A stretch of 44,794 nt of DNA, taken from Minisyncoccota bacterium. Its GTDB lineage: Bacteria > Patescibacteriota > Minisyncoccia > Phycocordibacterales > UBA9973. Positions 11,835 to 32,996 of this stretch are shown piece after piece (the first letter of the stretch is position 1; each line of letters starts with the position of its first letter). The stretch lies in NCBI GenBank assembly GCA_018062505.1, contig JAGOSA010000003.1, positions 1 to 44,794 of the forward strand, read 5' to 3'. The notes beneath the pieces are model-generated. The model did no database searches, had not been told where the DNA came from, and saw only the letters and a list, made by a program, of their open reading frames with translations. A program made the position numbers and the translations under genes.

Positions 11835-11839
11835 CATTT

Positions 11840-12239: not shown

Positions 12240-12244
12240 AGCTG

Positions 12245-12273
12245 AATATACCTTTTTTACACTGCTTTGGCAA
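12245..12273 (-). promoter_or_regulatory. Promoter of rnpB (TTGCCA-17-TATATT)
   Basis: Minus strand: ttgcca aagcagtgtaaaaaagg tatatt, 6-7 nt upstream of the predicted RNA 5' end. Confidence 0.55.
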
Positions 12274-12291
12274 TGAAATCGCTCCAAGGTT

Positions 12292-12300
12292 TGCTATACT
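12292..12300 (+). promoter_or_regulatory. Extended -10 (TGcTATACT) 7 nt upstream of ATG 12308
   Basis: tTGcTATACTgcttggaATG. This suggests a leaderless mRNA. Confidence 0.45.
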
Positions 12301-12307
12301 GCTTGGA

Positions 12308-12772
12308 ATGAAACAAGCCGAAAAAAATCCGCAGAGGAAAAATATCTTCAAGCGCACTTACACGTTCTTCGATAAGTTCGAAGACCACACTCGCGAATAC
12401 CTTTCGCGCCGACCAATCCTCTATACATTTATAGGTGGCGTCGCCATTGTCCTTTTCTGGCGCGGCATTTGGCATACGGCTGACCTCTTTCCGTGGCTCA
12501 CTGGTCCCGTTTCAATAGTCATTTCAGTTGTCATCTTGCTTGCCACTGGACTTTTTGTTTCGTACTTTGTCGGCGACATGATTATCATTTCTGGCCTCAA
12601 CAAAGACAAAAAGACGACTGAGAAAAACGAAGCTGAAATCCACGATGACCTCGCTCGCGAAGAGCACATAATCGATCGCTTAGAAGACAAAATCGACAAC
12701 CTTACTGACAAGATTGAAGCACTTGAAGAAAAAGTAGAAGAAAACAACGAAGAACCTTTAGGTTTTAGATAG
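12308..12772 (+). CDS. Small membrane protein (2 TM) with acidic coiled-coil C-terminus
   Basis: In-frame ATG downstream of rnpB. TM segments ILYTFIGGVAIVLFW and VSIVISVVILLATGLFVSYFV. C-terminal heptad-like EDKIDNLTDKIEALEEKVEE. The upstream 139 codons of ORF 11891..12772 are antisense to rnpB and are rejected. Confidence 0.65.
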   Translation: MKQAEKNPQRKNIFKRTYTFFDKFEDHTREYLSRRPILYTFIGGVAIVLFWRGIWHTADLFPWLTGPVSIVISVVILLATGLFVSYFVGDMIIISGLNKDKKTTEKNEAEIHDDLAREEHIIDRLEDKIDNLTDKIEALEEKVEENNEEPLGFR

Positions 12773-14990: not shown

Positions 14991-17486
14991 ATGGCTATAA
15001 CCGATACAATTAAAGGGCTTTTTACTTCGTCGCCGTTGCCGAAGTACCAATCTACCCTCAAAAAGATCAATGACCTCGAAGAGTCGTTTAAGGCTCTTTC
15101 TGATGCTGATTTTCCTGCTAAAACGATTGAGTTCAAGAAAATGCTCGCTGCTGAAGGATCTGCTAAGAAAACACTAGACGATATTTTGCCTGAAGCATTC
15201 GCTCTTGTTCGCGAAGCATCTCGACGCATGCTTGGTCAGCGTCACTATGATGTGCAATTGCTTGGATCAATGGTTCTTCACTCAGGAAACATTGCTGAAA
15301 TGAGAACTGGTGAAGGTAAGACGCTCGTTGCAACTCTTTCAACATATCTCAATGCACTCGAAGGCAAAGGCGTTCACGTTGTTACGGTCAACGACTACCT
15401 CGCGCGCCGCGACGCTGCTTGGATGGGACAGATTCACAATTTCCTCGGCCTCACTGTTGGTATCATCAACTCGCAAAACATTTCTTATCTATATGATCCT
15501 GCTCACAAAGATGCAGAAGACGACAAAGAACGCGATACACTCGGTTCATTTAAAGTTGAGTACGAATTTTTGAAACCTTGTTCTCGCAAAGAAGCTTATG
15601 CTGCAGACGTCACATACGGCACAAACAATGAATACGGCTTCGACTACTTGCGAGATAACCTTGCGCAGAAGCGAGAAGATCTCGTTCAGCGCGGTCACCA
15701 TTATGCAGTCGTTGACGAAATAGACTCGATCTTGATCGACGAATCACGCACGCCGCTCATCATTGCCGGCAAAGCAGGGGACAGCGAAAATCTTTACGGC
15801 ACATTTGCTAAAATAGCTCGCCAGCTCGCGCGCGACACAGATTACACTGTAGATGAAAAGCATCGCGCTGTTCAGCTTACTGATGCGGGTATTACTCGCG
15901 CAGAAAGTTTGCTCGGCATTCAGAACATTTATACAGAAAAGGGAATCAAGTACGTTCACCATCTCGAAACGGCAGTTCGCGCCGAAGCGCTCTTCAGCAA
16001 AGATAAAGAGTATGTCGTCAAAGACAATGCAATTATTATTGTTGATACATTTACTGGACGCTTGCAGCCAGGCCGCCGCTGGAATGAAGGCTTACACCAA
16101 GCTATTGAAGCTAAAGAAGGCGTGAAGATCGAGCAAGAAACTCGAGCTGTCGCTTCTATTACATACCAAAACTACTTCCGCTTCTACAAAAAGCTTTCCG
16201 GCATGACTGGTACTGCTAAAACGTCTGAAGAAGAATTCCTCAAGGTTTACGGACTTTCTGTTATTCAAGTTCCAACACATCGCGTACCTCAGCGCATCGA
16301 TCACACTGATCTCATTTTCCAAACAGAGAAAGGCAAGATTCAGGCAATGGTCCGCAAAATCAAAGAGCTCAATCAAAAGGGACAACCAGTGCTCATCGGT
16401 ACAGCATCGATCGAAAAAAACGAACTCCTCCACGAATATCTCACGGCTTCTGGTGTTCCGCACGAAGTCTTGAATGCCAAGAACCACGAACGCGAAGGCG
16501 AAATCATTGCGCAAGCTGGACGAAAAGCTGCTGTCACTATTGCCACAAACATGGCGGGCCGCGGCGTCGACATTATTCTCGGTGGTGTTCCTTATGTTGA
16601 ATCAGCTCACACTGAAGTAAAATCGCTTGGCGGTCTGTACGTTATAGGTACTGAGCGACACGAAGCGCGCCGCATCGACAACCAGCTCCGCGGACGATCT
16701 GGCCGACAAGGCGATCCAGGCGAAACGCAATTCTACCTTTCATTTGAAGATGACCTCATGCGCGTCTTTGCGACTGAATCCCTCAAGAACATGATGGGCC
16801 GCTTCGGTATTCCCGAAGACGAGCCAGTCGTCAATCGCTTCGTTTCTCGCGCTATCGAAAATGCTCAGGCAAAAATCGAAGGCATTAACTTTGATTCGAG
16901 AAAGCATACGCTCGACTACGACATGGTTCTCAACACGCAGCGTGAATCTATTTACTCTCGCCGACGCAAAATGCTAGTTGCTTCTGATGAAGAAGTCATG
17001 GCATACGGCAAAGAAACATTTGGCAATGACGAAAATGTCTGGAAAACGATCGAAGAAAAGAGAGAGAAAGTCGGCGACGTCGCTTTTGCTGATGTCTTCC
17101 GACGCATCGTTCTCTATGTGACAGATTCTCTTTGGACTGACCACATCGAAACGATGGACTACATGCGTTCGTCTGTTAACTTGCGCGCCTACGGCCAGCG
17201 CGAGCCTATTGTCGAATACAAGAAAGAAGGCTTGCGAATGTTTAAGGAAATGGAGGCAACTTTCTACAACAATGTTGTGACGCTTATCGGTACAATTGAA
17301 AAATCAGGGGAGAATAGTAATGGCGGCCAATCTGCCGGCAATAACAATACAGTTGAAGTTGAGGGCGGCGTGCCAGCAAATTCTCTTTCTGAAGGCGACA
17401 ATCCATACAAAAATCAAAAAATCGGCAGAAACGACGCTTGTCCATGCGGTAGCGGGAAAAAGTATAAGCAGTGTCATGGAAAGTAG
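14991..17486 (+). CDS. secA: Preprotein translocase ATPase SecA
   Basis: Walker A MRTGEGKT. DEAD-like VDEIDSILIDE. GRQGDPGE motif. C-terminal zinc finger CPCGSGKKYKQCHG. Confidence 0.96.
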   Translation: MAITDTIKGLFTSSPLPKYQSTLKKINDLEESFKALSDADFPAKTIEFKKMLAAEGSAKKTLDDILPEAFALVREASRRMLGQRHYDVQLLGSMVLHSGNIAEMRTGEGKTLVATLSTYLNALEGKGVHVVTVNDYLARRDAAWMGQIHNFLGLTVGIINSQNISYLYDPAHKDAEDDKERDTLGSFKVEYEFLKPCSRKEAYAADVTYGTNNEYGFDYLRDNLAQKREDLVQRGHHYAVVDEIDSILIDESRTPLIIAGKAGDSENLYGTFAKIARQLARDTDYTVDEKHRAVQLTDAGITRAESLLGIQNIYTEKGIKYVHHLETAVRAEALFSKDKEYVVKDNAIIIVDTFTGRLQPGRRWNEGLHQAIEAKEGVKIEQETRAVASITYQNYFRFYKKLSGMTGTAKTSEEEFLKVYGLSVIQVPTHRVPQRIDHTDLIFQTEKGKIQAMVRKIKELNQKGQPVLIGTASIEKNELLHEYLTASGVPHEVLNAKNHEREGEIIAQAGRKAAVTIATNMAGRGVDIILGGVPYVESAHTEVKSLGGLYVIGTERHEARRIDNQLRGRSGRQGDPGETQFYLSFEDDLMRVFATESLKNMMGRFGIPEDEPVVNRFVSRAIENAQAKIEGINFDSRKHTLDYDMVLNTQRESIYSRRRKMLVASDEEVMAYGKETFGNDENVWKTIEEKREKVGDVAFADVFRRIVLYVTDSLWTDHIETMDYMRSSVNLRAYGQREPIVEYKKEGLRMFKEMEATFYNNVVTLIGTIEKSGENSNGGQSAGNNNTVEVEGGVPANSLSEGDNPYKNQKIGRNDACPCGSGKKYKQCHGK

Positions 17487-17599: not shown

Positions 17600-19312
17600 A
17601 TGCATTTTCCATGGCGGAAAAAATCAACACCCGAGGGACAGTCGGTAGACGGTATTGTTCCGAATAGCAAAAAACTCATTCTTTCTTTGCGGGAAAAAGT
17701 CTGGAAGCTTGAAATTAGCCCTGCTAGAATCAGGGAATTTTGGCAGCGGAATAGAATATTCGTCTCTAGTTTTGTGGTTATTCTCTTTGTGCTTGTTTCA
17801 GGACTCGTCTCTCAATTAGGCAAAGCGGGGATTGCTAATTTTTATGCTGCTCAGTGTCTGGGTGGTTGGGAAAATCCCGCTAATGCTTCCGGTGAGCCTA
17901 CTCTTGATGATGATGCTCAAGGCTCTACTTTTAATATTAATAATTCGGCGGTTCTCAATAATACACAAGGAGATCTTTATTGTGGGGGATTTACAGGAGA
18001 ATTACCTGAAAACACTGACCCAGAAAGAATTAGTCTTAAAATTCACTGGACAGTTGATGATGGGGAAGTCTTGCACGACGTAGAGCCTCTTTCAGATTTT
18101 ATTGATTCACCATCAGGAGAAACTATACAAACGCCAGAAGAACAATTAGATACTCCTGTTGAGGTTCCTGAAACAAATGACGAACCGCAAGTGCTTCTGC
18201 CAATAATTATTATTCCAGAAAGCGAAGCCCCAACTGAAACGGAAACTTCACAAGATGCACCGCAGCAAACTCCAGAATCTACTCCCGCTCCGCAAAGCGA
18301 ATCATCTGACGGTGCTTTTAATTTCCATTTATTTAAAACAGCTCACGCACAAGAAGCGGATCCTGAGCAAGAAGTTGTTGTAGAACAGGTTGATGCCGAG
18401 CCGGCAGAAGTCACGATTGACGCACCAGTCGAGGGTGAACCTGAGGTTTCGCACTTTATGTCAGTTGAATACTCGGTTGATGGTTCCACGTGGATACCAT
18501 TTACAAAAATTAGCCGCGCTGATTGGAAGAATAGCGAATATGTTTTTCCGGACAATGCATTTTCGTGGAGCGAGGTAGCTAAATTGCAAGTCAGACTTAC
18601 GTCTTTGGCTTCTATTGATAGTCCGAAAGCAATATATGTCGATGCAGTCTGGCTGGATGTTGCCTACCAAACAATAGAACCAGATCCATTGCCCCAGCCT
18701 GATTTTGCAAAAGATAAAGTCATTTCTTATACCGAAAATAATAACGTACTAGCTGTTCTTGTGGAGCGAGAAGGAGAGAGGATGCTGTGGTATACAAAAA
18801 CAGAAGAAGGCAAATACTCTCTCAAAGAATTGTTAGAAAAAAAACAGAATGCAATGATTGTCATCGATGAGCCAATTACAATTGAGAATGAAACTATTAC
18901 TGCAGAAACAGTACTTGATGAAGAAGTGGTAACAGAAGAACAGGTTGCTGTAGTCGAAGATGAAAAGAATACTACTAAGATAGAAGAGGTAAAGCCCAAA
19001 GTGCCAACAAACCAAGACGCACTTCAGCTATACTCTGAAGCTTTTCCGATTATTTGGACACTTATTGATACGAGCGGGTCACTTCATGAAACAACCATCC
19101 TTTCCAGTTTTGAATCAACGTTGCTTTGGATTTCCCCAGCCCTACACGTTTTTTACGGATACAATACTAATACGAACGGCATATTTTCGCAGTCTATTGA
19201 TGAAGAGTCAAATGCTGGCGAGCTTTTATTTACTAGTGATGCTGGTGAACAATATCGCGCAATGTTTGTGCCAGTAGACCGTTCTATTCAGTTTAAACAA
19301 GCTCAGGAATAA
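17600..19312 (+). CDS. N-in membrane-anchored acidic surface protein (first gene of the surface locus)
   Basis: Basic cytoplasmic N-terminus. TM helix IFVSSFVVILFVLVSGLVSQL. Long Glu/Pro/Thr-rich acidic linkers. Beta-rich domain ending in AIYVDAVWLDVAY. The stop abuts the ATG of the next gene (taaATG). Confidence 0.7.
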   Translation: MHFPWRKKSTPEGQSVDGIVPNSKKLILSLREKVWKLEISPARIREFWQRNRIFVSSFVVILFVLVSGLVSQLGKAGIANFYAAQCLGGWENPANASGEPTLDDDAQGSTFNINNSAVLNNTQGDLYCGGFTGELPENTDPERISLKIHWTVDDGEVLHDVEPLSDFIDSPSGETIQTPEEQLDTPVEVPETNDEPQVLLPIIIIPESEAPTETETSQDAPQQTPESTPAPQSESSDGAFNFHLFKTAHAQEADPEQEVVVEQVDAEPAEVTIDAPVEGEPEVSHFMSVEYSVDGSTWIPFTKISRADWKNSEYVFPDNAFSWSEVAKLQVRLTSLASIDSPKAIYVDAVWLDVAYQTIEPDPLPQPDFAKDKVISYTENNNVLAVLVEREGERMLWYTKTEEGKYSLKELLEKKQNAMIVIDEPITIENETITAETVLDEEVVTEEQVAVVEDEKNTTKIEEVKPKVPTNQDALQLYSEAFPIIWTLIDTSGSLHETTILSSFESTLLWISPALHVFYGYNTNTNGIFSQSIDEESNAGELLFTSDAGEQYRAMFVPVDRSIQFKQAQE

Positions 19313-22300
19313 ATGAAAGCTATATTACGCCACCTCAGTAAAAATACTCTACTAAGAATTCTCTCTTTGCTATTGATTCTTTTTACAATTTTGGCGCCTG
19401 TGTACAGTAGTTTTACTGTGCGCGACGGCAAGCCCACTATTTCAGTAAATAAAAAAAAGGCAGATGCATCGTATCAATTTTTTCCAATCGCGGGCAATCT
19501 TGTTACGGGAACACAGCAAACAGTTACTGCTGCTTCAGTTGGTGCGGGTGAAGGCGTCAACCTAGGTTCATGGCAGGCGACACTAACGAGCGATTCTTAT
19601 CACTGGGTTGTCGCTGGCACTGCATCGGGCGTTGACGCACAGATTACTCTTGGAGGAGTCGAACTCAATGGCGCCAATACTCTGATGGTTACGACAACAT
19701 TTGACCTCGACGCTACTGTTCTTGCGACCGTCGTCCAAATCTGCGACTGGACTTCCACCACAAGTGTGGACAATGCTGCAGATGCGGAGTGTACCGGCGG
19801 CGGATGGCGAACGCTGAACAACCGCGATGTTGCAGTAACTGGCACAACAGTGAAGGGCTATCATTGGCAAATATACGACGGATACTGGTCTAATGGATCT
19901 AATACTGCGATCTCGACGCCACTTTCGAATTTTGTTGATGGTTCAAATAATACATTAGTAAGGTTTTACTCAACGACTAATACTTCGACCACAATCGCAA
20001 TTGATATGGTCCGCGTCTCCGCCGTCATTAACCCTATATACACCCCATCTGGCTTTGTTGAAATTAACGCTGCCAATACCCAGTCCGGCGACTACACCAA
20101 CACCACGGTTATTACGCAAGGTGCTTCAGACAACACATACCTCACGAACACTGGTACTGCCGGAGTTATTTCCGACTTCTACTTTCCATTCACCAACGTG
20201 AAAACATACACTGGCATGAACACGATTCTCGTCCGTGCCGAATACGGCTGCTCCACGACCGGTATTAACATTAAGCCGAAAATATACAACTTTGACTCGG
20301 CTGCTTGGGAAGACCTGACGTCCACCACCATTGCCTGTTCGGCGACAGATGCCACCAACATGTTTTCGAAGAACAATGTGACGATATCCGACTACATTTC
20401 TGGCGGTGAGATCCGTGTTGGCTTCTACGGCTCTGCGGTGAGTGCCACCGTTGGTCTGCGTGTTGACCAAATCTACATCATGGTTGGCACGACGAATACG
20501 AGCACTGCAGCCGCCGACTGCTTCATCTCCTTCGGTTCAGTGAGTGCCGGCGACTGCAGCAACACGCGGAATATTGATACCACTGCTGCGACTTCGAGCT
20601 GGAACATTGCGACAGAGGATGAGTCTGCGACGTTTGGGCATGATTATTTGCCGGGAGATAACGACGCAGATGCTGTGGTGGAGGAGGCTGCCGGAGCAAG
20701 TATTAAATTTACCGTAGCTAAGCCTGTTAATAGCGCTGTTACGGCTGAATTTTTTGCGACTCGCTTTGCAGCTGGAGTGTCGGGTACGACAGGAACAGTT
20801 GGTATGAACCTTGTTGATTATTCGGGATTCAATACCGCAGCAACTTTTGGCATGACTGCCGTGGGTGCGTCATCTGCTAACAGTACTCTTGTTTATACAG
20901 ACAACGTAACAGTGGCATCTGCTGCGAGTACTGGTTACGTAGGAATGAACCAAAATCCCGAAGACTATATTGATGCTAATAATAATCAGATGTGGATGCG
21001 ACTCCGAACATCAGCATCGGGTGCAACAGCCAACAACTCTGTGCGAGTAATTGATTTTGCCTTCGTCTCTATTCAGTGGATTGAGACAACTGTTGATCTC
21101 AGTACTCAGTATCAGTTTATGACAACAGACGGCAATCTTGTTACCGGAACGCAGCAAACTATTACTTCCGCAACAGCGCCAATAACAGAAGGTATAAACA
21201 TCGGATCATGGAAGGGTACTATGACTAATGATAACTTCCACTGGGCTGTTGCCAGTACTGCAAGTGGTGTAAATGCGCAATTGTCATTTGAAGGAGTAGA
21301 GCTGAATGGTGCCAATACTATAATGATAGAAAGTGAATTTGATCTGGATGCGACACTGCCATCTACCGTCGTCCAAATCTGCGACTGGACTTCTACCACA
21401 AGTGTGGATCATGCTGCAGATGCGGAGTGTACCGGCGGCGGATGGCGAACGCTCAACAACAGAAAAGTCGCAATTTCTACTGCGACTCCTTCTGTCTACC
21501 ATTGGCAAATATACGACGGATACTGGTCTAATGGATCTAATACACCAATTTCGACTCCCTTGAGTAATTTCGTCGATGCGACCGCTGGCACGCTCATCAG
21601 ATTTTATTCAACTACTAACACTGTTTCTGTTGTTTCCATTGATTACGTCCGCGTCTCCGCCGTCATTAACCCTATATACACCCCATCTGGCTTTGTTGAA
21701 ATTAACGCTGCCAATACCCAGTCCGGCGACTACACCAACACCACGGTTATTACGCAAGGTGCTTCAGACAACACATACCTCACGAACACTGGTACTGCCG
21801 GAGTTATTTCCGACTTCTACTTTCCATTCACCAACGTGAAAACATACACTGGCATGAACACGATTCTCGTCCGTGCCGAATACGGCTGCTCCACGACCGG
21901 TATTAACATTAAGCCGAAAATATACAACTTTGACTCGGCTGCTTGGGAAGACCTGACGTCCACCACCATTGCCTGTTCGGCGACAGATGCCACCAACATG
22001 TTTTCGAAGAACAATGTGACGATATCCGACTACATTTCTGGCGGTGAGATCCGTGTTGGCTTCTACGGCTCTGCGGTGAGTGCCACCGTTGGTCTGCGTG
22101 TTGACCAAATCTACATCATGGTTGGCACGACGAATACGAGCACTGCAGCCGCCGACTGCTTCATCTCCTTCGGTTCAGTGAGTGCCGGCGACTGCAGCAA
22201 CACGCGGAATATTGATACCACTGCTGCGACTTCGAGCTGGAACATTGCGACAGAGGATGAGTCTGCGACGTTTGGGCATGATTATTTTGCTTATGACAAT

Positions 22301-23215
22301 GACATCGACGCCGTAGTAGAAGAAGCCGCAGCTTCACATGTAAAGTTTTCAGTCACAAAAAATGATGCTACAGCCATTACAGGGGTAATGTTTGCTGAAA
22401 GAATAATGTCAGGTGCAGCCGGAACAGTTGCTGGCGGTATTGCTGATTATTCAGGATTCAATTTTCCAACCAATGGTTCTTTTGCGGTTATTGGCAGTGC
22501 CGCAACTTCGGGACTTGTCTATAGCGATCCAATTACAATAGGAGGCGTTGTGAGTGGTGGACCAATGGGAATAAACCAAAACCCCGAAGATCTCATAGAT
22601 ACAGTGGGCAACGAAGCATGGATTCGAGTAAGGACATCTTCGGCAGGAGCAACGGCGAGCAACTCTGTGAATCAAGTTGATTTTTTGATGATTTCCTATC
22701 AGTGGATTGAAGTTACTCCTGAAACGACAAATTATAGTATTTCATTCTCGCTTTCAGATAACACTATCGGCTTCGGAGCATTAACATCTGCCGCTGCACG
22801 TTTTGCAACAGGGGATACGATTGGTTCCAGTAGTGAAGTTGAGGCGCACACTTTAACAGCTCAAACAGATGTGCCTGATGGCTACACAATCTATGTTCAA
22901 GGCGATACGCTGTCGAACGGAGTAGATACTATCGATGCAATGGGGGCCACGAATGCAGGATCGTCTGTCGGGACCAATCAGTTTGGCTTGCGAATGACAG
23001 CAACTGGCGGCTCCGGTACAGTTTTAAGTCCTTATGCCGCAAGCGGATATGCATACGATGCGACAATAAGTAATCAGAGTGCGGTTGCGTCCTCTCCGAA
23101 TGGAGACAATGTTGCAACAGCATTTTCGGTGCGATACATAGGTAATATTTCAGATACTACTCCAGCGGGCGAATATACTACCCAGCTAACGTATACAATT
23201 ACAGCAACCTACTGA
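19313..23215 (+). CDS. 1300-aa secreted protein: two tandem 546-aa units plus a 162-aa C-terminal WxL/SCPU-like module
   Basis: Signal/TM helix LLRILSLLLILFTILAPVYS. Internal duplication with a period of exactly 1638 nt. The C-terminal module is shared with the product of 23324..24382. Confidence 0.85.
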   Translation: MKAILRHLSKNTLLRILSLLLILFTILAPVYSSFTVRDGKPTISVNKKKADASYQFFPIAGNLVTGTQQTVTAASVGAGEGVNLGSWQATLTSDSYHWVVAGTASGVDAQITLGGVELNGANTLMVTTTFDLDATVLATVVQICDWTSTTSVDNAADAECTGGGWRTLNNRDVAVTGTTVKGYHWQIYDGYWSNGSNTAISTPLSNFVDGSNNTLVRFYSTTNTSTTIAIDMVRVSAVINPIYTPSGFVEINAANTQSGDYTNTTVITQGASDNTYLTNTGTAGVISDFYFPFTNVKTYTGMNTILVRAEYGCSTTGINIKPKIYNFDSAAWEDLTSTTIACSATDATNMFSKNNVTISDYISGGEIRVGFYGSAVSATVGLRVDQIYIMVGTTNTSTAAADCFISFGSVSAGDCSNTRNIDTTAATSSWNIATEDESATFGHDYLPGDNDADAVVEEAAGASIKFTVAKPVNSAVTAEFFATRFAAGVSGTTGTVGMNLVDYSGFNTAATFGMTAVGASSANSTLVYTDNVTVASAASTGYVGMNQNPEDYIDANNNQMWMRLRTSASGATANNSVRVIDFAFVSIQWIETTVDLSTQYQFMTTDGNLVTGTQQTITSATAPITEGINIGSWKGTMTNDNFHWAVASTASGVNAQLSFEGVELNGANTIMIESEFDLDATLPSTVVQICDWTSTTSVDHAADAECTGGGWRTLNNRKVAISTATPSVYHWQIYDGYWSNGSNTPISTPLSNFVDATAGTLIRFYSTTNTVSVVSIDYVRVSAVINPIYTPSGFVEINAANTQSGDYTNTTVITQGASDNTYLTNTGTAGVISDFYFPFTNVKTYTGMNTILVRAEYGCSTTGINIKPKIYNFDSAAWEDLTSTTIACSATDATNMFSKNNVTISDYISGGEIRVGFYGSAVSATVGLRVDQIYIMVGTTNTSTAAADCFISFGSVSAGDCSNTRNIDTTAATSSWNIATEDESATFGHDYFAYDNDIDAVVEEAAASHVKFSVTKNDATAITGVMFAERIMSGAAGTVAGGIADYSGFNFPTNGSFAVIGSAATSGLVYSDPITIGGVVSGGPMGINQNPEDLIDTVGNEAWIRVRTSSAGATASNSVNQVDFLMISYQWIEVTPETTNYSISFSLSDNTIGFGALTSAAARFATGDTIGSSSEVEAHTLTAQTDVPDGYTIYVQGDTLSNGVDTIDAMGATNAGSSVGTNQFGLRMTATGGSGTVLSPYAASGYAYDATISNQSAVASSPNGDNVATAFSVRYIGNISDTTPAGEYTTQLTYTITATY
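20009..20649 (+). repeat. Identical core copy 1 (641 nt)
   Basis: Appears base-for-base identical to 21647..22287. Spot-checked by eye. Off-frame ORFs 20126..20470 and 21764..22108 translate identically. Confidence 0.85.
21647..22287 (+). repeat. Identical core copy 2 (641 nt)
   Basis: See 20009..20649. Offset is exactly 1638 nt. Confidence 0.85.
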
Positions 23216-23309
23216 TTTTTCGGTATTAGGGTATGCACAGGATATCCCCACGGTTGACTTTCCGGTTATGTTATAATACCAAGCATAAATTGTCGGGTTG
23301 TTTATTAAA

Positions 23310-23315
23310 TATAAT
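23310..23315 (+). promoter_or_regulatory. -10 box within the shared motif TATAATGGCTGCATA, 8 nt upstream of ATG 23324
   Basis: aaaTATAATggctgcatATG. The same 15-mer recurs at 25465. Confidence 0.45.
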
Positions 23316-23323
23316 GGCTGCAT

Positions 23324-24382
23324 ATGATATATAAAAAGTTTTTACCGCTAGTAACTGTGCTCTCGCTCGTTTTAGGCATGATTGCTCCTGTTTTCCCTCA
23401 GCGAGCAATGGCTGCATCTCTCACTGCGCTTTCTGACACACAGTCAACAATCAAAGCGGCAACAGCTTCAAACCACGATATTTCTTTCACGACACCAACT
23501 GGTATTACATCCGGTCAAACTGTTGTACTTACTTGGAACAACAGCACTTCAGTCAATGCTTCACTCGATTTTACTGATATCGACGTTTTGGATGATGGTG
23601 TTAACGTTACTCTAGCTGCTTCGCCATCAGGTGCGACGTGGGGTGCAGTTCGAACTTCTGGTACAGTTATCACTCTTACTAACGGTAACGTTGCTGTCGC
23701 AGGTGGCAGCGTCGTCCGCATCAAGATTGGTACGAATGCGACAAACCAATCTACAGGTGTACGACAGATAACAAATGGTTCTGCCGGAACAACAACACTC
23801 ACAATTGCTGGCGGTACTTTTGCTGACAGTGGAACTATTTCAACACCAATCATTGCAGATGACGTAGTCAACGTTACTGCCACAGTCAACCAGACAATTA
23901 GCTTTTCTGTTTCAGATACAACAATCGGTTTTGGTACGCTTGCAACAGCAAACGCAAGGTATGCAACAGGCGATACTCTCGGTACGACATCTGATACAGC
24001 AGCGCACACTGTTGCGGTTGCAACAAACGCTGCAAATGGCTACACAGTCAATCTTCAGGGAGCAACACTAACTTCAGGAGCTAATACAATTGATGCGATA
24101 GGAGCAACAAGCGCTGCTTCATCAGCAGGAAACGAACAATTCGGTGTGTATGCGACAAAATCAGGTGGTGTTAACGGCACAATTACCACACGTTATAACG
24201 ACAATGCGACACCTGGGTTTGCATACAATGCGACTGGTTCTACTGCAGACACACTTGCAACAGGATCTAGTGCAACCAACACAGAAACATACTCAATTCA
24301 CTACATAGCAAACATCTCAGCTATTACCGAAGCTGGATCATATGCGACAAACATTACTTATGTCGGTACAGGTAACTTCTAG
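23324..24382 (+). CDS. Secreted protein: N-terminal beta-rich domain plus C-terminal WxL/SCPU-like module (candidate fibre subunit)
   Basis: Signal peptide (LVTVLSLVLGMIAPVFPQRAMA). C-terminal 164 aa (23888..24379) are ~55% identical by eye to 22727..23212 (ISFSVSDTTIGFGTL.., GYTV.LQG.TL.SG..TIDA.GAT, ..GSYATNITYVGTGNF). Confidence 0.8.
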   Translation: MIYKKFLPLVTVLSLVLGMIAPVFPQRAMAASLTALSDTQSTIKAATASNHDISFTTPTGITSGQTVVLTWNNSTSVNASLDFTDIDVLDDGVNVTLAASPSGATWGAVRTSGTVITLTNGNVAVAGGSVVRIKIGTNATNQSTGVRQITNGSAGTTTLTIAGGTFADSGTISTPIIADDVVNVTATVNQTISFSVSDTTIGFGTLATANARYATGDTLGTTSDTAAHTVAVATNAANGYTVNLQGATLTSGANTIDAIGATSAASSAGNEQFGVYATKSGGVNGTITTRYNDNATPGFAYNATGSTADTLATGSSATNTETYSIHYIANISAITEAGSYATNITYVGTGNF

Positions 24383-24383
24383 T

Positions 24384-25469
24384 ATGAAACAATTATTCAA
24401 AAACCCAGTTGTTTGGTTTTTGGCTTTTGTTCTCTTGTTTACTCCGCTGATTAGCGCACATGCGCTGACAGTTTCTCCAGCACGACTTGAGATAGACGGT
24501 AATCCTGGATCTCAGCTCAAAATAGACATGGTTCTCATGAATGATAAAGACGAGAATCAAGTTTTTTATTCTTCGTATGCAAATTTCGAAGCTCAAGGTG
24601 AATCTGGTACGCCTAACTTTGTTGATCCAAAAGAAGGTCTAGGTACATGGATGAAAGTCCCTGAATCTGTCACTCTGTCTCCATTTGAAACAAAAACTGT
24701 TCCAGTTGTTATTAGTATTCCAAACACTGCCGATGCGGGCGGACATTTTGCCTCTGTATTTTGGAGCACTGTTCCATCTCAGGGTTCACAGCCGGGTCAG
24801 GTTGCTATTGGTGCAAAGCTTGGCGTGCTTGTTCTCCTTCGAGTTAATGGGGACATAACTGAGAATGGATCTATTGTCGATTTCACAACTAAGGATGGTA
24901 TTAAAAAGTTCTCAGCATTACCAGTTACATTTACATATCGATTCAATAATGCCGGAGATGACCGCGTAAAGCCGGTCGGCACTTTAACGATTAAAAATAT
25001 TTTGGGAATGAAGCGTACTGTTATTGATGGCAACCCAAGCCAAGGCAACGTACTGCCAAAAAGCACTAGAAAATTTGAGCTAGCATGGAATAAGAAAAAC
25101 GCAGTAAATGAGGTTTATGTTGCTCCAGTCGGTTTTTGGGATAATGTTTCATACCAGTGGAAGCATTTCGCATTTGGCAGATATACTGCGAATCTTTCTC
25201 TTGTATACACAAGTAAGAATATCGCTGATTCTGCAACTACAACTTTCTATGTATTTCCATGGCAGCTTCTCATAGTCATAATTATCGCTGCGATTATTGC
25301 GTATCTCTTGCTTAAGAGAATTATGCGATCGTACAACAGAATGCTGATTGCTCAGGTGCGCGAGAAAATTGAAGAAGAAGTTGAAGAGAGACTAGAAGCC
25401 AAACAAGAACAAGAAGAAGAGGAAAAAGTAATTCGCAAGCCTAAATCTCACCACAGACCTAGGGTATAA
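24384..25469 (+). CDS. DUF916/DUF3324-like (PapD-like Ig fold) protein with C-terminal TM anchor and charged tail
   Basis: Start at ATG 24384, 1 nt after the upstream stop. Signal peptide. LTVSPARLEIDGNPG...MVLMND. NTADAGGHFASVFW. Second Ig-like domain. TM helix LLIVIIIAAIIAYLLL, then a KR- and E-rich tail. The architecture matches Firmicute CscA-type proteins as I recall them. Confidence 0.75.
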   Translation: MKQLFKNPVVWFLAFVLLFTPLISAHALTVSPARLEIDGNPGSQLKIDMVLMNDKDENQVFYSSYANFEAQGESGTPNFVDPKEGLGTWMKVPESVTLSPFETKTVPVVISIPNTADAGGHFASVFWSTVPSQGSQPGQVAIGAKLGVLVLLRVNGDITENGSIVDFTTKDGIKKFSALPVTFTYRFNNAGDDRVKPVGTLTIKNILGMKRTVIDGNPSQGNVLPKSTRKFELAWNKKNAVNEVYVAPVGFWDNVSYQWKHFAFGRYTANLSLVYTSKNIADSATTTFYVFPWQLLIVIIIAAIIAYLLLKRIMRSYNRMLIAQVREKIEEEVEERLEAKQEQEEEEKVIRKPKSHHRPRV

Positions 25470-25470
25470 T
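25465..25470 (+). promoter_or_regulatory. -10 box within the shared motif TATAATGGCTGCATA, 9 nt upstream of ATG 25480
   Basis: gggTATAATggctgcataATG. It overlaps the stop codon of the upstream gene. Confidence 0.45.
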
Positions 25471-25479
25471 GGCTGCATA

Positions 25480-26370
25480 ATGAGCAATACGCCTGTCCAT
25501 CTTGTATTTATAAAAATTGTACTTATTGCCACTCTGTTTTGTTCAGGCAGTTTCGTTCTTGCTGATGAAGTAGTCAATATATCTGCAACTGTTCCGGGAA
25601 TTATTCCGGGTGGCCCAGGCGGAGGTGGTGGTGGATTCGGAGGACTCACAGCTCCGACTGCTGTTTCTTTTTCTGGTCGCGCATATCCGCTTTCGCGCGT
25701 CACTATTTTGCGCGATAACGTTATTGCAATTACAACAATTGCTGGACCAGATGCACGCTTTAATGTAACGCTTGACGCGCTCAGTCAGGGAAACTACTCG
25801 TTCTCAGTTTATTCTGAAGACGCTGGCGGAAGAAAATCAGATTTATTTTCATTCCCGCTATATATCACAGAAGGCGCAACAACGACTATTTCAGGAATAT
25901 TTATTTCTCCAACAGTCGATGTTGATAAAATGACGGTTAAGCAAGGGGATAACATTACTATTTTTGGATCGAGCGCCCCAAATGCTTCAATTACTATCTC
26001 AGTCCATTCGCCAGTTGAGCATTTTGTTCAAGCTAGCACAGACCAGACAGGAGCTTATGTATATACATTCGACACTTCAATTCTTGAGCTAGGAAGCCAT
26101 CTTGCAAAGTCTAAAGCAGTGCTGGGTAGTGCTGCGACTGAGTTCGGCAAGGCAATTTCATTTTCCGTCGGTGATAAAACAATACCAAAAGATAAAGGCT
26201 GCAATGCCAAGGGGGACCTAGACGCCAATTGCCGCGTAAACCTGATAGATTTTTCAATAATGGCATATTGGTATAAGCGACCTAATCCGCCGGCAAACGT
26301 AGACCTCAACGGAGACAATACAATTACTATTGTTGACTTCTCGATTTTGGCATATGGCTGGACAGGTTAA
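25480..26370 (+). CDS. Secreted protein with Gly-run, two Ig-like repeats and C-terminal dockerin domain
   Basis: Signal peptide. GGPGGGGGGFGG. Two ~85-aa beta-sandwich-like repeats. The C-terminus carries duplicated Ca-binding dockerin segments, DLDANCRVNLIDFSIMAYWY and DLNGDNTITIVDFSILAYGW. Confidence 0.8.
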   Translation: MSNTPVHLVFIKIVLIATLFCSGSFVLADEVVNISATVPGIIPGGPGGGGGGFGGLTAPTAVSFSGRAYPLSRVTILRDNVIAITTIAGPDARFNVTLDALSQGNYSFSVYSEDAGGRKSDLFSFPLYITEGATTTISGIFISPTVDVDKMTVKQGDNITIFGSSAPNASITISVHSPVEHFVQASTDQTGAYVYTFDTSILELGSHLAKSKAVLGSAATEFGKAISFSVGDKTIPKDKGCNAKGDLDANCRVNLIDFSIMAYWYKRPNPPANVDLNGDNTITIVDFSILAYGWTG

Positions 26371-26386
26371 TCGAAAAAACAGAAAA

Positions 26387-27286
26387 ATGAAACCATTCTA
26401 TATTACAATCGCATTTATATTTTCATTCTTGTTTGCACAAGCTGTTTCTGCTCAGTCGATCAGTACGCCGATTGCTGCCGCGACTTACCATAAAGAATCA
26501 ACTTTCACAGTTCCTGTTTTATTGGCAAGTCCTGATCAGGCAATAAATGCATTTGAAGTAACGGTTACATATCCTGACAATCTCGTTTTTGTCGGTAGCG
26601 ATGAAGGCGGATCGATTATTAGTTTTTGGATTGATAAACCTTCTAGTGAAAACGCCAGCTCAAAAAACACTCCAAACTCTATCGTATTTTCGGGAGCAAT
26701 GCCTTCAGGTTTTACTGAGGTCTACAACCCACTCAACAAGAAAAAAAGCCCTGGCCTACTGACGAAGCTTATATTTAAGGCAAAGCAAGAGGGAAGTGGA
26801 ACGATTGCTGCAACTTCGGCCTTGTATGCCAACGATGGGTTTGGTACAGCTGTTCCAGCAACAGGATTTAGCGTTTCCATTGCCGTAGATGAAACCACAG
26901 AAGCAACTGACTATGTATGGTCGGATGTCGTTCCTCCTGAACTTTTTGTGCCGTCAGTCTCAAAAGATGATTCAATCTATGGCGGCAAGTATGCGCTTTA
27001 TTTCAATGCAATCGATAAGGATTCAGGCATAGCAGGCTATGAAGTTCGCGAAGGAGAAAGAAAATGGAAAGCAGCAACAAGTCCGTACTTGCTGCAAGAT
27101 CAGCAACTGCATTCGGCAATCACAGTTCGTGCTACAGACAAAGCTGGCAATGCAATCATTGCAACTCTTGAAGCCCCAGCCGGCGCCGCAAATCATTTCG
27201 CACAGTCACTCATGGTGTACTTGCTCATCTTTATTCTTCTTTCCCTTGTTTTTGTGTTTCGAAAAAGAATTTTCAAGGTACAATAA
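26387..27286 (+). CDS. Cohesin-domain protein with Ig-like domain and C-terminal TM anchor
   Basis: Start moved to ATG 26387 (signal peptide MKPFYITIAFIFSFLFAQAVSAQS). Cohesin-like module (FTVPVLLASPDQAINAFEVTVTYPDNLVFVG...LLTKLIFKAKQEGSGTI...). DKDSGIAGYEV..W....VRATDKAGN Ig-like domain. TM helix MVYLLIFILLSLVFVF. Confidence 0.75.
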   Translation: MKPFYITIAFIFSFLFAQAVSAQSISTPIAAATYHKESTFTVPVLLASPDQAINAFEVTVTYPDNLVFVGSDEGGSIISFWIDKPSSENASSKNTPNSIVFSGAMPSGFTEVYNPLNKKKSPGLLTKLIFKAKQEGSGTIAATSALYANDGFGTAVPATGFSVSIAVDETTEATDYVWSDVVPPELFVPSVSKDDSIYGGKYALYFNAIDKDSGIAGYEVREGERKWKAATSPYLLQDQQLHSAITVRATDKAGNAIIATLEAPAGAANHFAQSLMVYLLIFILLSLVFVFRKRIFKVQ

Positions 27287-27290
27287 TCCT

Positions 27291-28436
27291 ATGCGTTCTC
27301 TTGCTAAAGCAATTTTTGTTGCAGCTTCTATATTCGGATTTGCTCATGCGTCATTCGCTGCGAACTATGTCATTTCGCCTTCATCAAAAGCCATTGAAGT
27401 TGGTGATGCAGTAACGGTAACTGTGTACGCAAGCAGTATTGCTCAGGCAATCAATGTCGTATCTGGATCAGTGACCTTTGATCCAGCGCTCCTTCGGGTT
27501 AAAAGCGTTAGTACGTCTGGATCTGTCGTGAAATTTTGGATTACCGAGCCATCCACTCCGAAAAGCTCTGCCTCTTCGTTCAAATTCGAAGGCGTCATTC
27601 TCAATCCGGGGTACACAGGAGCATCCGGCAAGGTTTTTTCTATAACATTTACTGCACAGAATGAAGGCACTGCAACGATCGGCATATCGAGTGCTGCAAT
27701 CTTGGCAAACGATGGCGCTGGAACAAATGTCACAAATGCCACTGCTCCACTGTCGCTTTCTATCTCTAAACCAAGTCGTCCATCCGAAGTAATCCCAGTT
27801 CCTTCGGCTCCCGACACGTCGCCAGTTCCGCCCGCGACAAGTACAGATAGTGCACAACCTTCTGCAAGTCCAATTCTTAAAATTACCGAAATACCCGAAA
27901 AGGTTCGACTAGGGGAATCGTTTAGACTTGCCGGTTTAAGTTCACAAGGCGATGTTAGCGTCTTTGCGGTCAAAACAGGCCATATCGGAGCGCTCGACCG
28001 AACAGTGCTCTATACGAATCTTACGGAAGGAGGCTACTATCTCAAGGAGGACGCAAAAGTTACCGATAGGCGTTTTGAAGCCGAGTTCAAAAACCTCGAA
28101 GCTGGCCGATACGCTTTCTATGCGAGAGATGCCGAAGGCAATGTGACGAGCATAGTCTTTGTTGAAGTTGTCGCTTCGTTTAGGGAAGTGGCTAGGGACT
28201 TTGCCCTGACTTGGTGGTGGATTCCAATGCTTGCCCTCCTCATCATGGCGCTCATATACCTCTTTTGGCACCTAGCTCAAGTCCGAGCACTTCACCACCA
28301 GAGGCTCCTTTCCGATTCTTTATCCAAAAAGTACGACGTCTACGACCGGATGATCCAAAAGCTCGATCTCGGTATCACTTTGACAGCAGAAGAGCATGCT
28401 TTGCTCGAAAAACTACGCGGAAATTACAAAAAATAG
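27291..28436 (+). CDS. Cohesin-domain protein with Pro/Ser linker, beta domain and C-terminal TM anchor
   Basis: Start moved to ATG 27291 (signal peptide MRSLAKAIFVAASIFGFAHASFA). Cohesin-like module (AIEVGDAVTVTVYASSIAQAINVVSGSVTFDPALLRVKSV...KVFSITFTAQNEGTATI). PSRPSEVIPVPSAPDTSPVPPATS linker. TM helix WWWIPMLALLIMALIYLFW. Confidence 0.75.
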   Translation: MRSLAKAIFVAASIFGFAHASFAANYVISPSSKAIEVGDAVTVTVYASSIAQAINVVSGSVTFDPALLRVKSVSTSGSVVKFWITEPSTPKSSASSFKFEGVILNPGYTGASGKVFSITFTAQNEGTATIGISSAAILANDGAGTNVTNATAPLSLSISKPSRPSEVIPVPSAPDTSPVPPATSTDSAQPSASPILKITEIPEKVRLGESFRLAGLSSQGDVSVFAVKTGHIGALDRTVLYTNLTEGGYYLKEDAKVTDRRFEAEFKNLEAGRYAFYARDAEGNVTSIVFVEVVASFREVARDFALTWWWIPMLALLIMALIYLFWHLAQVRALHHQRLLSDSLSKKYDVYDRMIQKLDLGITLTAEEHALLEKLRGNYKK

Positions 28437-28544: not shown

Positions 28545-28633
28545 GTCGATGTACCTTTGTATTCAGGCGAATCGCCTTGATATATAAGGGTTTTTTCTTT
28601 CTCTGACGAGTTTTGCGGAGCACAACCGCTTAT

Positions 28634-29287
28634 ATGACCAAGAATTTTACGAAGTACATTCATTCGTTTATCGCCATACCAATTCTGGCTTTCTCCCTCC
28701 CTTCGGCTTCACTGCCAAGCGGGATAACGTTGAATCTTACTTCCCAATTTAATACGAGTACGGCAGTTGTGGAGGACAACACTCCAGATCTGACCGAGTA
28801 CCGAGCTGAGCTTATTGACTCTTACTATGCAGAAAAAAAGCTCCCTATGGCTGGCTACGGCAAGCTTATGGTGGAGGCTGCTGACAAGTATGATCTCGAC
28901 TGGCGCCTTCTTCCGGCTCTCGCTATCCGCGAGTCTACTGGCGGAAAGCAAGCTTGTGGAGGAAAGCTCTCTGCTGAGTGGAACCCTTGGGGTTGGAACT
29001 CATGTAAAGGCAATGGATTCGTATCGATGGAGGAATCTATTGATACTATTGCCAAGCACTTGAGCGGAAACCACGAGCGTACTGCACGCTACTACAAGAA
29101 GAAGCAGGGCGATTTGAAGGGTCTCCTTCAGGTCTATAACCCGCCTTCAGTAGTGCCGACATACGCCCAAGAAGTCATGAAAATCATGTCGAAGATCTCT
29201 TCGACTGAAGATGTGACTGTGGCAGCTACTGCTGCACATATGCTTGCAAACGAAACTGCAAAAGTTGAAGTCGCTCTCGTTAAATAA
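28634..29287 (+). CDS. Secreted lysozyme-like / transglycosylase-like protein (tentative)
   Basis: N-terminal hydrophobic helix. Segment DWRLLPALAIRESTGGK...NPWGW resembles the catalytic Glu region of SLT/lysozyme-like folds. Function call is weak. Confidence 0.6.
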   Translation: MTKNFTKYIHSFIAIPILAFSLPSASLPSGITLNLTSQFNTSTAVVEDNTPDLTEYRAELIDSYYAEKKLPMAGYGKLMVEAADKYDLDWRLLPALAIRESTGGKQACGGKLSAEWNPWGWNSCKGNGFVSMEESIDTIAKHLSGNHERTARYYKKKQGDLKGLLQVYNPPSVVPTYAQEVMKIMSKISSTEDVTVAATAAHMLANETAKVEVALVK

Positions 29288-32700: not shown

Positions 32701-32996
32701 TTGTCTTTTCTTCCGCGTGCAGCGAGGTAGCCTTCAACGCCGAGAATTGGCTTGAGTCCAGCTTTTTTTGCTTCCATATAAAAATCGATTGCGCCGTACA
32801 TTGCGCCGTGGTCAGTAAGCGCAAGCGCCGGCATGCCGTATTTGACTGCAGTTTTGACGAGGTCAGTAACTTTTGAAAGTCCATCGAGCAGGGAATAGTG
32901 CGAGTGCGTATGAAGATGCACGAACTTCATTTCATTAGCGCCGGATTTTTTTGTGATATCTTGCGCAGCTTTTTCTTTTGTGTCGGCAGTAGCCAT
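29742..32996 (-). CDS. dnaE: DNA polymerase III alpha subunit
   Basis: PHP domain VHLHTHSHYSLLDG. Polymerase core motifs (PDIDMDF, GLTKFDFLGIRNLS, FNKAHAASY). OB-fold C-terminus. ATG 32996 is supported by an upstream TGgTATAAT. An alternative ATG lies at 32930. Confidence 0.95.
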   Translation of the reverse strand: MATADTKEKAAQDITKKSGANEMKFVHLHTHSHYSLLDGLSKVTDLVKTAVKYGMPALALTDHGAMYGAIDFYMEAKKAGLKPILGVEGYLAARGRKDKETGLDSRRNHITLFAKNETGYRNLMRLTTMAHLEGFYYKPRMDKEILRAYSEGIICLSGCPASEMGMALRENNMDRARELVIEYQEIFGKDNYFLEIMAHQEVPGWENWKNGIIKLHEEFGIPIVGTHDSHYLMHDDQDAHEALLRINTGADGKDGSKGMSMKDGDYHLINTEEAIKLFEGIPGAVENTSMVAEMCELDLVLGKFVFPEFALPEGVTTDAALKELAYAGLERRGIAGDAKSIERLDYELSVIAMKGYAAYFLVVEDLIRYAHENKILTNIRGSVAGSMTTYVLGITSVNPLEYKLPFERFLNPDRPSAPDIDMDFADDRRDEVIEYAKRKYGADKVAQIGTFGTMMARGAVRDVARALGYPYDMGDRLSKMIPMGSQGMPMTIDHAMELEPELKKAYDTEGDTRRIIDLAKKIEGGVRHISVHAAGVVISPRPLVEYVPLQFDPKGGKLITQYDMYTVGEDGVGLTKFDFLGIRNLSILAEAVQLVEQRHGVIIDLENIPLNDPRTFALLARGQTEGLFQLNGSGMTRYLKELKPSTIHDINAMVALYRPGPMEAIPEYIKRKHNPSLVRYLDPRMKEILDTSFGVITYQDDVMMLAIKLAGYTWIEADKLRKAMGKKIPAEMEAQKDKLLKGFVANGLSKEKANELWLLIEPFAAYGFNKAHAASYGRVSYQTAYMKANYPVEYMTAIMTAESGDVEKVADIIAECKNMNITVLPPDVNECFGGFTVINSGDNNGTGGIIRFGLYTIKNLGTDISDAIIEERKDRGPFLSIGDFLDRVHHKNLNKKSLEALIKTGAMDAFGERATLFGNIENMLEYNREGKKNAGMISLFGDLPDAGPTFNLQAMPPINISEILVWEKELLGLYVSGHPLDKIKDKLLGRALNIKKVHEGVGNGMSVVLAGIIETVRPVFTKKNDRMAFIRIADFSGAIEAVVFPKTFTELSAIIIQDKTIAFEGKVTVRNGEKSIVIEKLKEI

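Follow-up and report, generated by a model that had tools for sequence, protein, structure and literature searches.

A candidate Pam-type pilus locus with a proposed dockerin-bearing terminator and probable cohesin-type membrane anchors in a Paceibacteria-like bacterium

The locus and its conservation in related genomes

The stretch of DNA analysed here (referred to as the window) comprises 44,794 nucleotides, positions 1 to 44,794 of the forward strand of contig JAGOSA010000003.1 (assembly GCA_018062505.1), and comes from a Minisyncoccota bacterium of the candidate phyla radiation (CPR). It carries seven consecutive genes, g1 to g7, which we read as the probable determinants of a pilus of the Pam type, fitted with a dockerin protein and two cohesin-type membrane proteins that would fasten it to the cell. 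All seven open reading frames (ORFs) were confirmed on the plus strand, between secA (14991-17486) and dnaE (29742-32996, minus strand), where the original prediction, which was made from the sequence without database searches, had placed them. The intergenic gaps from g1 to g7 are 0, 108, 1, 10, 16 and 4 nt, and the public contig JAGNIC010000008.1 (GCA_018001375.1), which also carries the region, has the same seven gene calls. The division of the genes into three sub-units, proposed at the same time, is neither supported nor refuted by a promoter and terminator scan of the locus, which gave counts at or below chance. The features are listed in Table 1.

Table 1 Features of the pilus-type locus, with positions in the window.
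Feature	Position (nt)	Strand	Description and basis
g1	17600..19312	+	Acidic protein, secreted or anchored; apparent free-standing copy of the N-terminal module of giant tip proteins
g2	19313..23215	+	Candidate tip adhesin: signal peptide, two 546-aa tandem units, Pam-type acceptor domain
g2 tandem units (2 x 1638 nt = 546 aa)	19424..22699	+	Copy 2 from 21062
g2 C-terminal Pam-type pilin domain (acceptor groove), aa 1139-1300	22727..23212	+	NF058581
g3	23324..24382	+	Candidate major (shaft) pilin: signal peptide, N-terminal beta-sandwich, linker/donor strand, C-terminal domain
g3 linker/donor strand DDVVNVTATV, aa 179-188	23858..23887	+	Family consensus, dip in model confidence (AlphaFold2 pLDDT), Pam preprint
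g3 C-terminal Pam-type pilin domain	23894..24379	+	NF058581 match at aa 214-352
g4	24384..25469	+	Candidate membrane-anchored pilin chaperone: two beta-sandwich domains, transmembrane helix (nt 25266-25313), charged cytoplasmic helix
g5	25480..26370	+	Candidate pilus terminator/adaptor: signal peptide, donor strand, Gly linker, two immunoglobulin (Ig)-like domains, dockerin
g5 mature N-terminal strand DEVVNISATV, aa 29-38	25564..25593	+	Followed by Gly-rich linker, nt 25594-25644
g5 dockerin, two Ca-loop/helix repeats	26212..26367	+	Pfam Dockerin_1
g6	26387..27286	+	Candidate membrane anchor 1: signal peptide, cohesin-like domain (nt 26477-26881), Ig/OmpL47-like domain, C-terminal transmembrane helix (nt 27209-27259)
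g7	27291..28436	+	Candidate membrane anchor 2: signal peptide, cohesin-like domain (nt 27354-27785), Pro/Ser linker, Ig-like domain, transmembrane helix (nt 28212-28268), ~55-aa cytoplasmic tail
g8	28613..29287	+	Possible peptidoglycan hydrolase downstream; membership in the system uncertain

A scan of 185,579 species-level genomes with an alignment of g4 found a relative in 314 of them, and the locus counts given throughout refer to the best 80 of these 314. The 80 loci are mostly labelled Nomurabacteria or Paceibacteria/Paceibacterota, while a few carry doubtful automatic labels. When the window proteins were compared by BLASTP with all ORFs of these loci, g3, g5 and g6 were each present in 77 and g7 in 75. 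The strict order g3-g4-g5-g6-g7 is kept in 64 of the 80, with contig ends cutting 8 more, so that the neighbourhood comparison which the original prediction had recommended speaks for a conserved unit. Upstream of g3 the relatives encode at least one protein of 313-2929 aa that ends in the pilin C-terminal domain described below. The flanking genes are common to the closest relatives only (secA in 2 loci and dnaE in 6).

Pilin-type domains, donor strands and candidate tip proteins

Pam pili were described by cryo-electron microscopy of filaments from the CPR parasite Candidatus Mycosynbacter amalyticus, by which its pilins, PamA and PamB, were identified; a subunit inserts its linker strand in the open C-terminal domain of its neighbour, and there is no usher (bioRxiv 10.64898/2026.03.03.709456). 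The Mycosynbacter operon was compared by means of the text and supplement of this preprint and the NCBIfam Pam models NF058581 and NF058579. The first of these models (CPR_Pam_pilin_C, 'Pam pilus system pilin subunit') is matched by g2 with 69 bits and by g3 with 78 bits against a cutoff of 55, as well as by all of the 45 g3 homologues tested. That g2 and g3 end in a common module, as had been noticed earlier, is clear from the alignment of the last 162 residues of g2 (aa 1139-1300) with g3 (47% identity over 173 aa, E 9e-39). On the strength of these matches, the shared module is the C-terminal domain of Pam pilins. Its previous description as similar to WxL or spore coat protein U (SCPU) domains is not borne out at the level of the sequence: none of 45 g3-family members has a Pfam WxL match at E<=1, no match to Pfam SCPU or Fimbrial was found in these members or in g2, and the C-terminal modules of g2 and g3 contain no Trp. 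The accompanying idea of a surface fibre assembled non-covalently through interfaces of the donor-strand type is retained in the present reading of the locus.

The g3 protein has 1162 homologues of about 350 aa, with identities of 52-65%. Its AlphaFold2 (AF2) model, with a mean predicted local distance difference test score (pLDDT) of 88.5, consists of an N-terminal sandwich (aa 34-177) and a C-terminal domain (aa 192-352), joined by a linker (aa 178-191) for which the pLDDT of the monomer model goes down to 59. The family consensus of this linker, DDxVxVxATVxQ, lies immediately N-terminal to the C-terminal domain, and across the 80 loci a strand of the form DDxVxVxATV always precedes this domain in g3-type pilins. 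All C-terminal domains of the family's pilins end precisely at the C-terminus of the protein, with a conserved aromatic residue. The layout of the Pam pilins, in which a single linker strand joins an N-terminal beta-sandwich to the C-terminal domain, is found in full in g3. A hidden Markov model of the g3 linker (14 columns) recovered three pilins that were missed by BLAST, and is too specific to close relatives, with weak separation of g5. Searches of the PDB sequences, among which neither PamA nor PamB was detectable, returned nothing useful for g1, g2, g3 or g4 as single proteins or for the family profiles of the last two.

In g2, the two tandem units of 546 aa that had been proposed are evident from a DNA period of 1638 nt, the units being 78% identical in amino acid sequence over 460 residues and 80% identical in DNA. 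A block of about 600 nt (20024-20620 compared with 21662-22258) is 100% identical while its flanks reach just 53-81%, which points to a recent gene conversion between the units or to a collapse in the assembly. The double unit also occurs in five of the related loci (L018, L015, L030, L065 and L020). The sequence preceding the C-terminal domain of g2 is QWIEVTPETTNYSISF, from which the VxVxATV strand is absent. The same is true of the first-gene proteins of the relatives (313-2929 aa) that carry the C-terminal domain, none of which has a donor strand before it; examples of such pre-domain sequences are, next to that of g2, NSGNNDSCW and KVCASAAAAALSF. In Mycosynbacter, PamT is a single-domain tip pilin without a strand, and PamR is an RbmA-like transmembrane tether with an N-terminal strand (bioRxiv 10.64898/2026.03.03.709456). 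Both g2 and the first-gene proteins thus have the arrangement of a PamT-type tip, an acceptor domain with no donor strand, but differ from the single-domain PamT in their large additional N-terminal domains; the PamT equivalog model itself was not passed (35 bits against 240).

The first gene of the locus can be placed with respect to the same class of proteins. The ~370 N-terminal residues of g1 align, at 27-32% identity and with E-values down to 1e-45, with the N-termini of 2000-2900-aa ORFs that have the pilin domain at their C-terminus, in a dozen relatives including L008, L038, L019, L052 and L012, while g1 is a separate upstream gene in loci that have a g2-type repeat protein. By this comparison, g1 is a split-off N-terminal module of the giant tip protein class. 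In the g1 family, a small-x-small site (KA|G in the window, GHA|S or TKA|D in relatives) and then the motif FYPxxCLGGWxNP, both of them conserved, come after a hydrophobic segment, which resembles a long cleavable signal peptide more than a membrane anchor. Of the original description of g1 as an acidic protein anchored with its N-terminus inside, the acidic ORF on the plus strand therefore stands, and the anchor is doubtful owing to the conserved site. Neither g1 nor the 546-aa unit of g2 has a match in Pfam, NCBIfam, PHROGs or the PDB sequences.

The chaperone-type protein and the dockerin and cohesin-type proteins

The AF2 model of g4 (mean pLDDT 85) shows two beta-sandwich domains, a transmembrane helix and a long charged helix, and 762 homologues were found at 45-50% identity. 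A Foldseek search of the PDB with this model matched the WxL-interacting protein WxLIP of Enterococcus faecium (9i1y, E 5.5e-11, target-normalised TM-score 0.47; also 9i25, which is WxL-bound) and the chaperones of chaperone-usher systems, namely CfaA (6k73, target-normalised TM-score 0.58), CsuC (6fqa) and DraB. Weak matches to DUF916/WxLIP_PGBD are present in 31 of 43 g4-family members, all below the Pfam cutoff (best E 2e-5), and Pfam PapD_N is matched by none of the 43. The structure search, which had been recommended along with the original prediction, hence agrees with its description of g4 as a C-terminally anchored protein with two Ig domains of the DUF916/PapD type. Two residues, R34 and K145, are nearly invariant in the family, and we take them to stand at the positions of Arg8 and Lys112 of PapD, the residues which hold the C-terminus of the pilin. 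In the Pam operon, PamC and PamD are PapD/FimC-like chaperones with a C-terminal transmembrane helix (bioRxiv 10.64898/2026.03.03.709456), a description that applies to g4 at the level of the fold only.

The g5 protein contains the Pfam domains Big_6 and Dockerin_1, preceded by a signal peptide and a Gly-rich stretch. Its Dockerin_1 match reaches 23.6 bits for the whole protein and 27.4 bits for the module, against a cutoff of 22.9, and the same domain is matched by the C-termini of all 38 g5 homologues tested (best E 9.9e-12). A profile of these dockerins finds the solved type I dockerins of the PDB with E 6e-7, and 60 of 78 sequences have both Ca-loop motifs. The identification of g5 as a dockerin protein, already made in the original prediction, can be regarded as secure by these sequence comparisons.

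What had not been recognised before is that the N-terminus of g5 copies the donor strand of the pilins, in a protein that has no pilin C-terminal (acceptor) domain. In the window, the strands read ADDVVNVTATV in g3 and ADEVVNISATV in g5, alike at 8 of 11 positions. The syntenic g5 homologues have a strand [VI]x[VI][ST]AxV directly after the signal peptide, followed by poly-Gly, and in 72 of 77 homologues a degenerate form of the motif lies in the segment that separates the signal peptide from the first Ig domain, with near-variants in the other 5; across 3375 other ORFs, this motif has a background of 0.39 per 1000 aa. Homology of the g3 and g5 strands is supported by a natural fusion in locus L054 (4991-6358, also found as P0347), in which a pilin N-terminal domain and donor strand are joined to the Gly-Ig-Ig-dockerin part, and which aligns with g3 residues 30-188 (E 2e-14) and g5 residues 6-296 (E 1.5e-68), through the strand in both cases. 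The locus thus encodes an acceptor-only, a donor-plus-acceptor and a donor-only protein, which is the logic of adhesin, shaft and terminator in chaperone-usher pili. Two further observations concern this group of proteins. Locus L054 has three g3-type pilin paralogues, and in the g5 homologues of L024, L032, L045 and L080 the donor strand is separated from the Gly linker by a Cys-rich insert (GCGxDxIxxGExCDG...).

The C-terminal part of g5 is not confined to the pilus loci. With g5 as the query, a full phmmer scan gave 530 representative clusters at E<=1e-30, and the Gly-Ig-Ig-dockerin part was always covered in the top 150 matches. In about 60 of these 150 it is preceded by nothing more than a signal peptide and a short strand, and in about 80 by other N-terminal domains, such as fn3-like domains, Cys-rich domains (CGNGxxExGEQCDG) and the 'NAHVG' domain of P0280, which is the N-terminal part of small tip proteins. 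With such varied N-terminal passengers the cassette fits a general anchoring role, and from its domain make-up it looks like a general device for hanging cargo on a cohesin. In the pilus loci the cargo would then be the donor strand, and hence by inference the whole filament. The distribution of the cassette suggests that cohesin-dockerin pairs are a general surface-display system in CPR bacteria.

The remaining two proteins, g6 and g7, have one N-terminal domain in common (hhalign of g6 against the cohesin profile of the g7 family, probability 98.7%, E 2.5e-16), and each ends in a hydrophobic helix, read from the sequence as membrane-spanning. Only 39 homologues of g7 were detectable; 11 of 38 scanned have Pfam Cohesin matches of up to 46 bits. 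When scanned individually, 6 of 8 g7 homologues reached the gathering threshold of 24.1 (24-46 bits, aa ~30-157), and the matched region is exactly the N-terminal domain that aligns with g7. As the original prediction had it, both proteins are therefore probably cohesins anchored by a transmembrane helix. The OmpL47-type barrel of g6 scores 30.9 bits with the NCBIfam model, which is below the cutoff.

Proposed assembly, known relatives and alternative readings

From the domain identities, the gene order and the distribution of strands and grooves, we infer that the locus specifies a Pam-type pilus of a Paceibacteria-like CPR bacterium, in which g5 would terminate the filament and dock it to g6 and/or g7, and we give this reading a probability of roughly 0.6. 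The filament would be exported by Sec and built by donor-strand exchange with no need of an usher. The WxLIP/PapD-like g4, held in the membrane by its C-terminal helix, would cap the open groove of each newly exported pilin. Since g2 has a groove but no donor strand, it could sit only at the distal end, its two large repeat units being the probable adhesin, and g1 would be a split-off module of the same adhesin class. The g3 subunits would be added at the base, each giving its linker strand to the groove of the preceding subunit, until g5 takes the last groove from the chaperone; growth would end there because g5 has a strand at its mature N-terminus and no groove to offer. Its dockerin, carried on a flexible Gly linker and two Ig domains, would bind the cohesin domains of g6 and/or g7 and so tether the filament. 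The Pam filament of Mycosynbacter has been modelled as held by the PamR tether, and its pili detach easily (bioRxiv 10.64898/2026.03.03.709456); here g5 together with g6 and g7 would take over the job assigned to PamR. Polymerisation in this organism, its polarity, the insertion of the g5 strand into g3 and the binding of dockerin to cohesin are all parts of this model.

The likeness to the Pam system of Mycosynbacter lies in the homologous pilin C-terminal domain, the same pilin layout, a two-domain chaperone-like protein with a C-terminal transmembrane helix, the lack of an usher, an acceptor-only tip and Sec export. By protein numbering, the Mycosynbacter operon consists of seven contiguous genes, pamC-B-R-D-E-A-T (bioRxiv 10.64898/2026.03.03.709456), with the tip gene last, whereas the tip gene comes first at the present locus. 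There is one chaperone-type gene here as opposed to PamC, PamD and PamR there, and the candidate tip protein has repeats and a length of 1300 aa (in relatives up to 2900 aa), where PamT is a single domain. No PamR-like tether (RbmA-like, transmembrane, with an N-terminal strand) is found in the locus, where g4 is the only transmembrane protein with two Ig domains; in its place the locus has the donor-strand/dockerin protein g5, which has no transmembrane helix, and the two transmembrane proteins of the cohesin type. The lineages differ as well (Paceibacteria/Nomurabacteria-type here, Saccharimonadia there), and the locus does not have an ATP synthase neighbourhood. Neither cohesins nor dockerins are mentioned in the Pam preprint or its supplement (bioRxiv 10.64898/2026.03.03.709456), and no natural pilus anchored by a cohesin-dockerin pair was found in the literature searched. 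The original statement, that no described system was known to join parts of this kind to a cohesin-dockerin set in one locus, must accordingly be divided: the core is that of the CPR Pam pilus, and what appears to be new is the anchoring variant, the combination with cohesin and dockerin being undescribed in the literature found.

The classical and archaic chaperone-usher pili (Pap/Fim, CFA/I, Csu) share with the proposed system the donor-strand logic, a strandless tip adhesin, a terminator that only donates (compare PapH) and a similar two-Ig chaperone fold (CfaA, CsuC, DraB). They differ in that the present system has neither usher nor outer membrane, and in that its chaperone is anchored in the membrane. 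Except in g5, the donor strand here is the linker between two domains and not an N-terminal extension, the terminator is entirely devoid of a pilin domain, and there are no matches to Pfam PapD_N, Fimbrial or SCPU.

Several points weigh against the proposed assembly. Strand insertion and the pairing of cohesin with dockerin are deduced from sequence patterns and synteny. When the complete model of g3 was submitted to Foldseek, no pilin came back, and the matches were limited to generic two-domain adhesins and integrins, at TM-scores < 0.3. The g4 protein has no match to the NCBIfam Pam models at E<=1, and its best Foldseek E-value is to RbmA (2.6e-11), the fold assigned to the tether PamR, yet with TM-scores of 0.23/0.34; it could be a tether instead of a chaperone. 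The window's g6 and g7 themselves fall below the Pfam Cohesin threshold, and the cohesin profile of the g7 family meets the solved cohesins of the PDB at E 0.3-0.7 only, for which reasons their assignment is probable and not proven. The model has no explanation for the retention of two cohesin proteins. Among the relatives, locus L070 (9965-14427) is without g5 and yet keeps two cohesin-type transmembrane proteins, and in locus L058 (3252-15084), which is without g5-g7, two pilin-chaperone pairs precede a protein of 2118 aa. Finally, if a g1-type N-terminus were to stay uncleaved in the giant tip proteins, the proposed polarity would come into question.

A rather unlikely alternative is that two independent systems happen to be neighbours. 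In this reading g1-g4 would make a Pam-type pilus, and g5-g7 would be a cohesin-dockerin set for surface display, which anchors a protein with Ig domains and is unrelated to the pilus. The occurrence of the cassette with many unrelated N-terminal domains would agree with this, as g6 and g7 could be general scaffolds with many clients. Against it, the order of the genes is fixed in 64-72 of the 80 loci, among relatives with a g4 that shares only ~46% identity with the window's, the pilin-type strand is the sole N-terminal element of the syntenic g5 subfamily, and in the L054 fusion the cassette follows the N-terminal domain and strand of a pilin. The anchoring of cellulosomes offers a parallel for g5-g7, in that g5 has a duplicated Ca-binding dockerin and a probable cohesin-family domain is found on cell-bound proteins encoded adjacently. 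In contrast to cellulosomes, the present locus lacks enzymes, carbohydrate-binding modules and SLH domains, the cohesins are anchored by a transmembrane helix at their C-terminus, and the cargo is apparently a pilus attached via a beta-strand. A cellulosome-like scaffold for enzymes was ruled out, as no enzyme or carbohydrate-binding domains are present.

It is improbable that g2 and g3 are displayed as monomers which g4 holds at the membrane by completing their C-terminal domains, with no polymer being formed. This reading takes its cue from the WxL (Csc) clusters of Firmicutes, which encode WxLIP (DUF916, DUF3324 and a transmembrane segment) next to two WxL proteins, one small and one large (PMC10599100; PDB 9i1y, 9i25), and for which AF2 predicts a WxLIP strand inserted into WxL (PMC10599100). 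The architecture of g4 is that of WxLIP, the solved structures that superpose best on it include the two WxLIP entries (one of them WxL-bound), 31 of 43 family members have the weak DUF916 matches, and a small and a large protein with a common C-terminal domain accompany it, so that the set mirrors a WxL cluster. However, the common domain scores above the cutoff of the curated Pam pilin model, and its homologues are seen by cryo-electron microscopy to build filaments. It comes from this filament-forming family, has neither W-x-L motifs nor a Pfam WxL match, and goes with a donor strand (g3); monomer display leaves no role for this strand, which is conserved in g3 and g5 and absent from the first-gene proteins. 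Cohesin-dockerin genes are moreover not part of WxL clusters. The resemblance of g4 to WxLIP may reflect common ancestry of the chaperone-like protein.

A reversal of roles, with g4 as a PamR-like tether, no dedicated chaperone, pilins that self-assemble like TasA or archaeal bundling pili, and g5 as a distal cap whose dockerin binds cohesins on another or the same cell, is highly improbable: although RbmA gives the best E-value for g4, donor-strand filaments without a chaperone exist and each locus has one g4-type gene where Mycosynbacter has three two-domain transmembrane proteins (PamC, PamD, PamR), the superposition on RbmA is poor (root-mean-square deviation 15.6 A) compared with CfaA and WxLIP (target-normalised TM-scores 0.47-0.58), g4 is as conserved as the pilin, and in its mature form it starts with the first strand of its own domain and not with a free strand of the pilin type. 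A TasA/archaeal bundling pilus was set aside, there being no Pfam matches and a chaperone-type gene being present.

Taken together with the cassette and the WxLIP affinity, the proposed assembly can be extended to a broader reading, for and against which we find the odds about even. The g5 protein would be a pilin reduced to its bare donor strand, with the dockerin replacing the acceptor domain, and the locus would specify a donor-strand-exchange pilus terminated and fastened to the membrane by cohesin and dockerin, the first natural use of this pair as a pilus anchor. The pilus would be one client of a wider, cassette-based surface display in CPR bacteria, and the affinity of g4 to WxLIP would tie the Pam pili of CPR bacteria and the WxL clusters of Firmicutes to one ancestral monoderm system of strand complementation.

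Surroundings of the locus and significance

The genes neighbouring the locus are housekeeping genes, with no ATP synthase nearby. Neither the seven proteins nor their neighbours matched an usher in Pfam or NCBIfam, and PHROGs gave 0 matches for the 7 locus proteins and no 'tail-fibre-like' link. Directly downstream, g8 encodes a secreted protein with weak similarity to Glucosaminidase/SLT domains (22 bits, cutoff 30.2), which follows the locus in the 7 closest relatives only; it could be a wall hydrolase that aids the passage of the pilus through the cell wall. Elsewhere in the window, a separate surface protein of 878 aa (7302-9938, minus strand) with Pur_ac_phosph_N/fn3 and DUF11 repeats showed no link to the pilus locus. 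A bacterial RNase P RNA of class A (RF00010, 125 bits) lies at 11839-12238 on the minus strand, and the plus-strand ORF at 11891-12772 is probably spurious since it overlaps this RNA. A group I intron (RF00028, 63 bits) is located near the end of the window (44358-44660, plus strand); an ORF with an HNH-type motif (CQICG...HHVNP...CANCH), which begins just upstream of the intron and overlaps it (44112-44420, plus strand), is probably a homing endonuclease, and no tRNA or rRNA gene was detected that could be the host gene of the intron.

Pam pili were first described in 2026, from one cultivated parasite of the Saccharimonadia, and the present locus would be a second design, widely conserved elsewhere in the CPR. 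This design offers a testable solution to the termination and anchoring of a pilus without usher, sortase or outer membrane. The division into acceptor-only, donor-plus-acceptor and donor-only proteins can be used for annotating such loci and for picking out the tip proteins that bind the host, and the hypervariable tips encoded by the first genes, 300-2900 aa in length, are likely determinants of host range in episymbionts. More broadly, the locus points to cohesin and dockerin as a general device for surface display in CPR bacteria, and to a possible link with the WxL clusters of Firmicutes.

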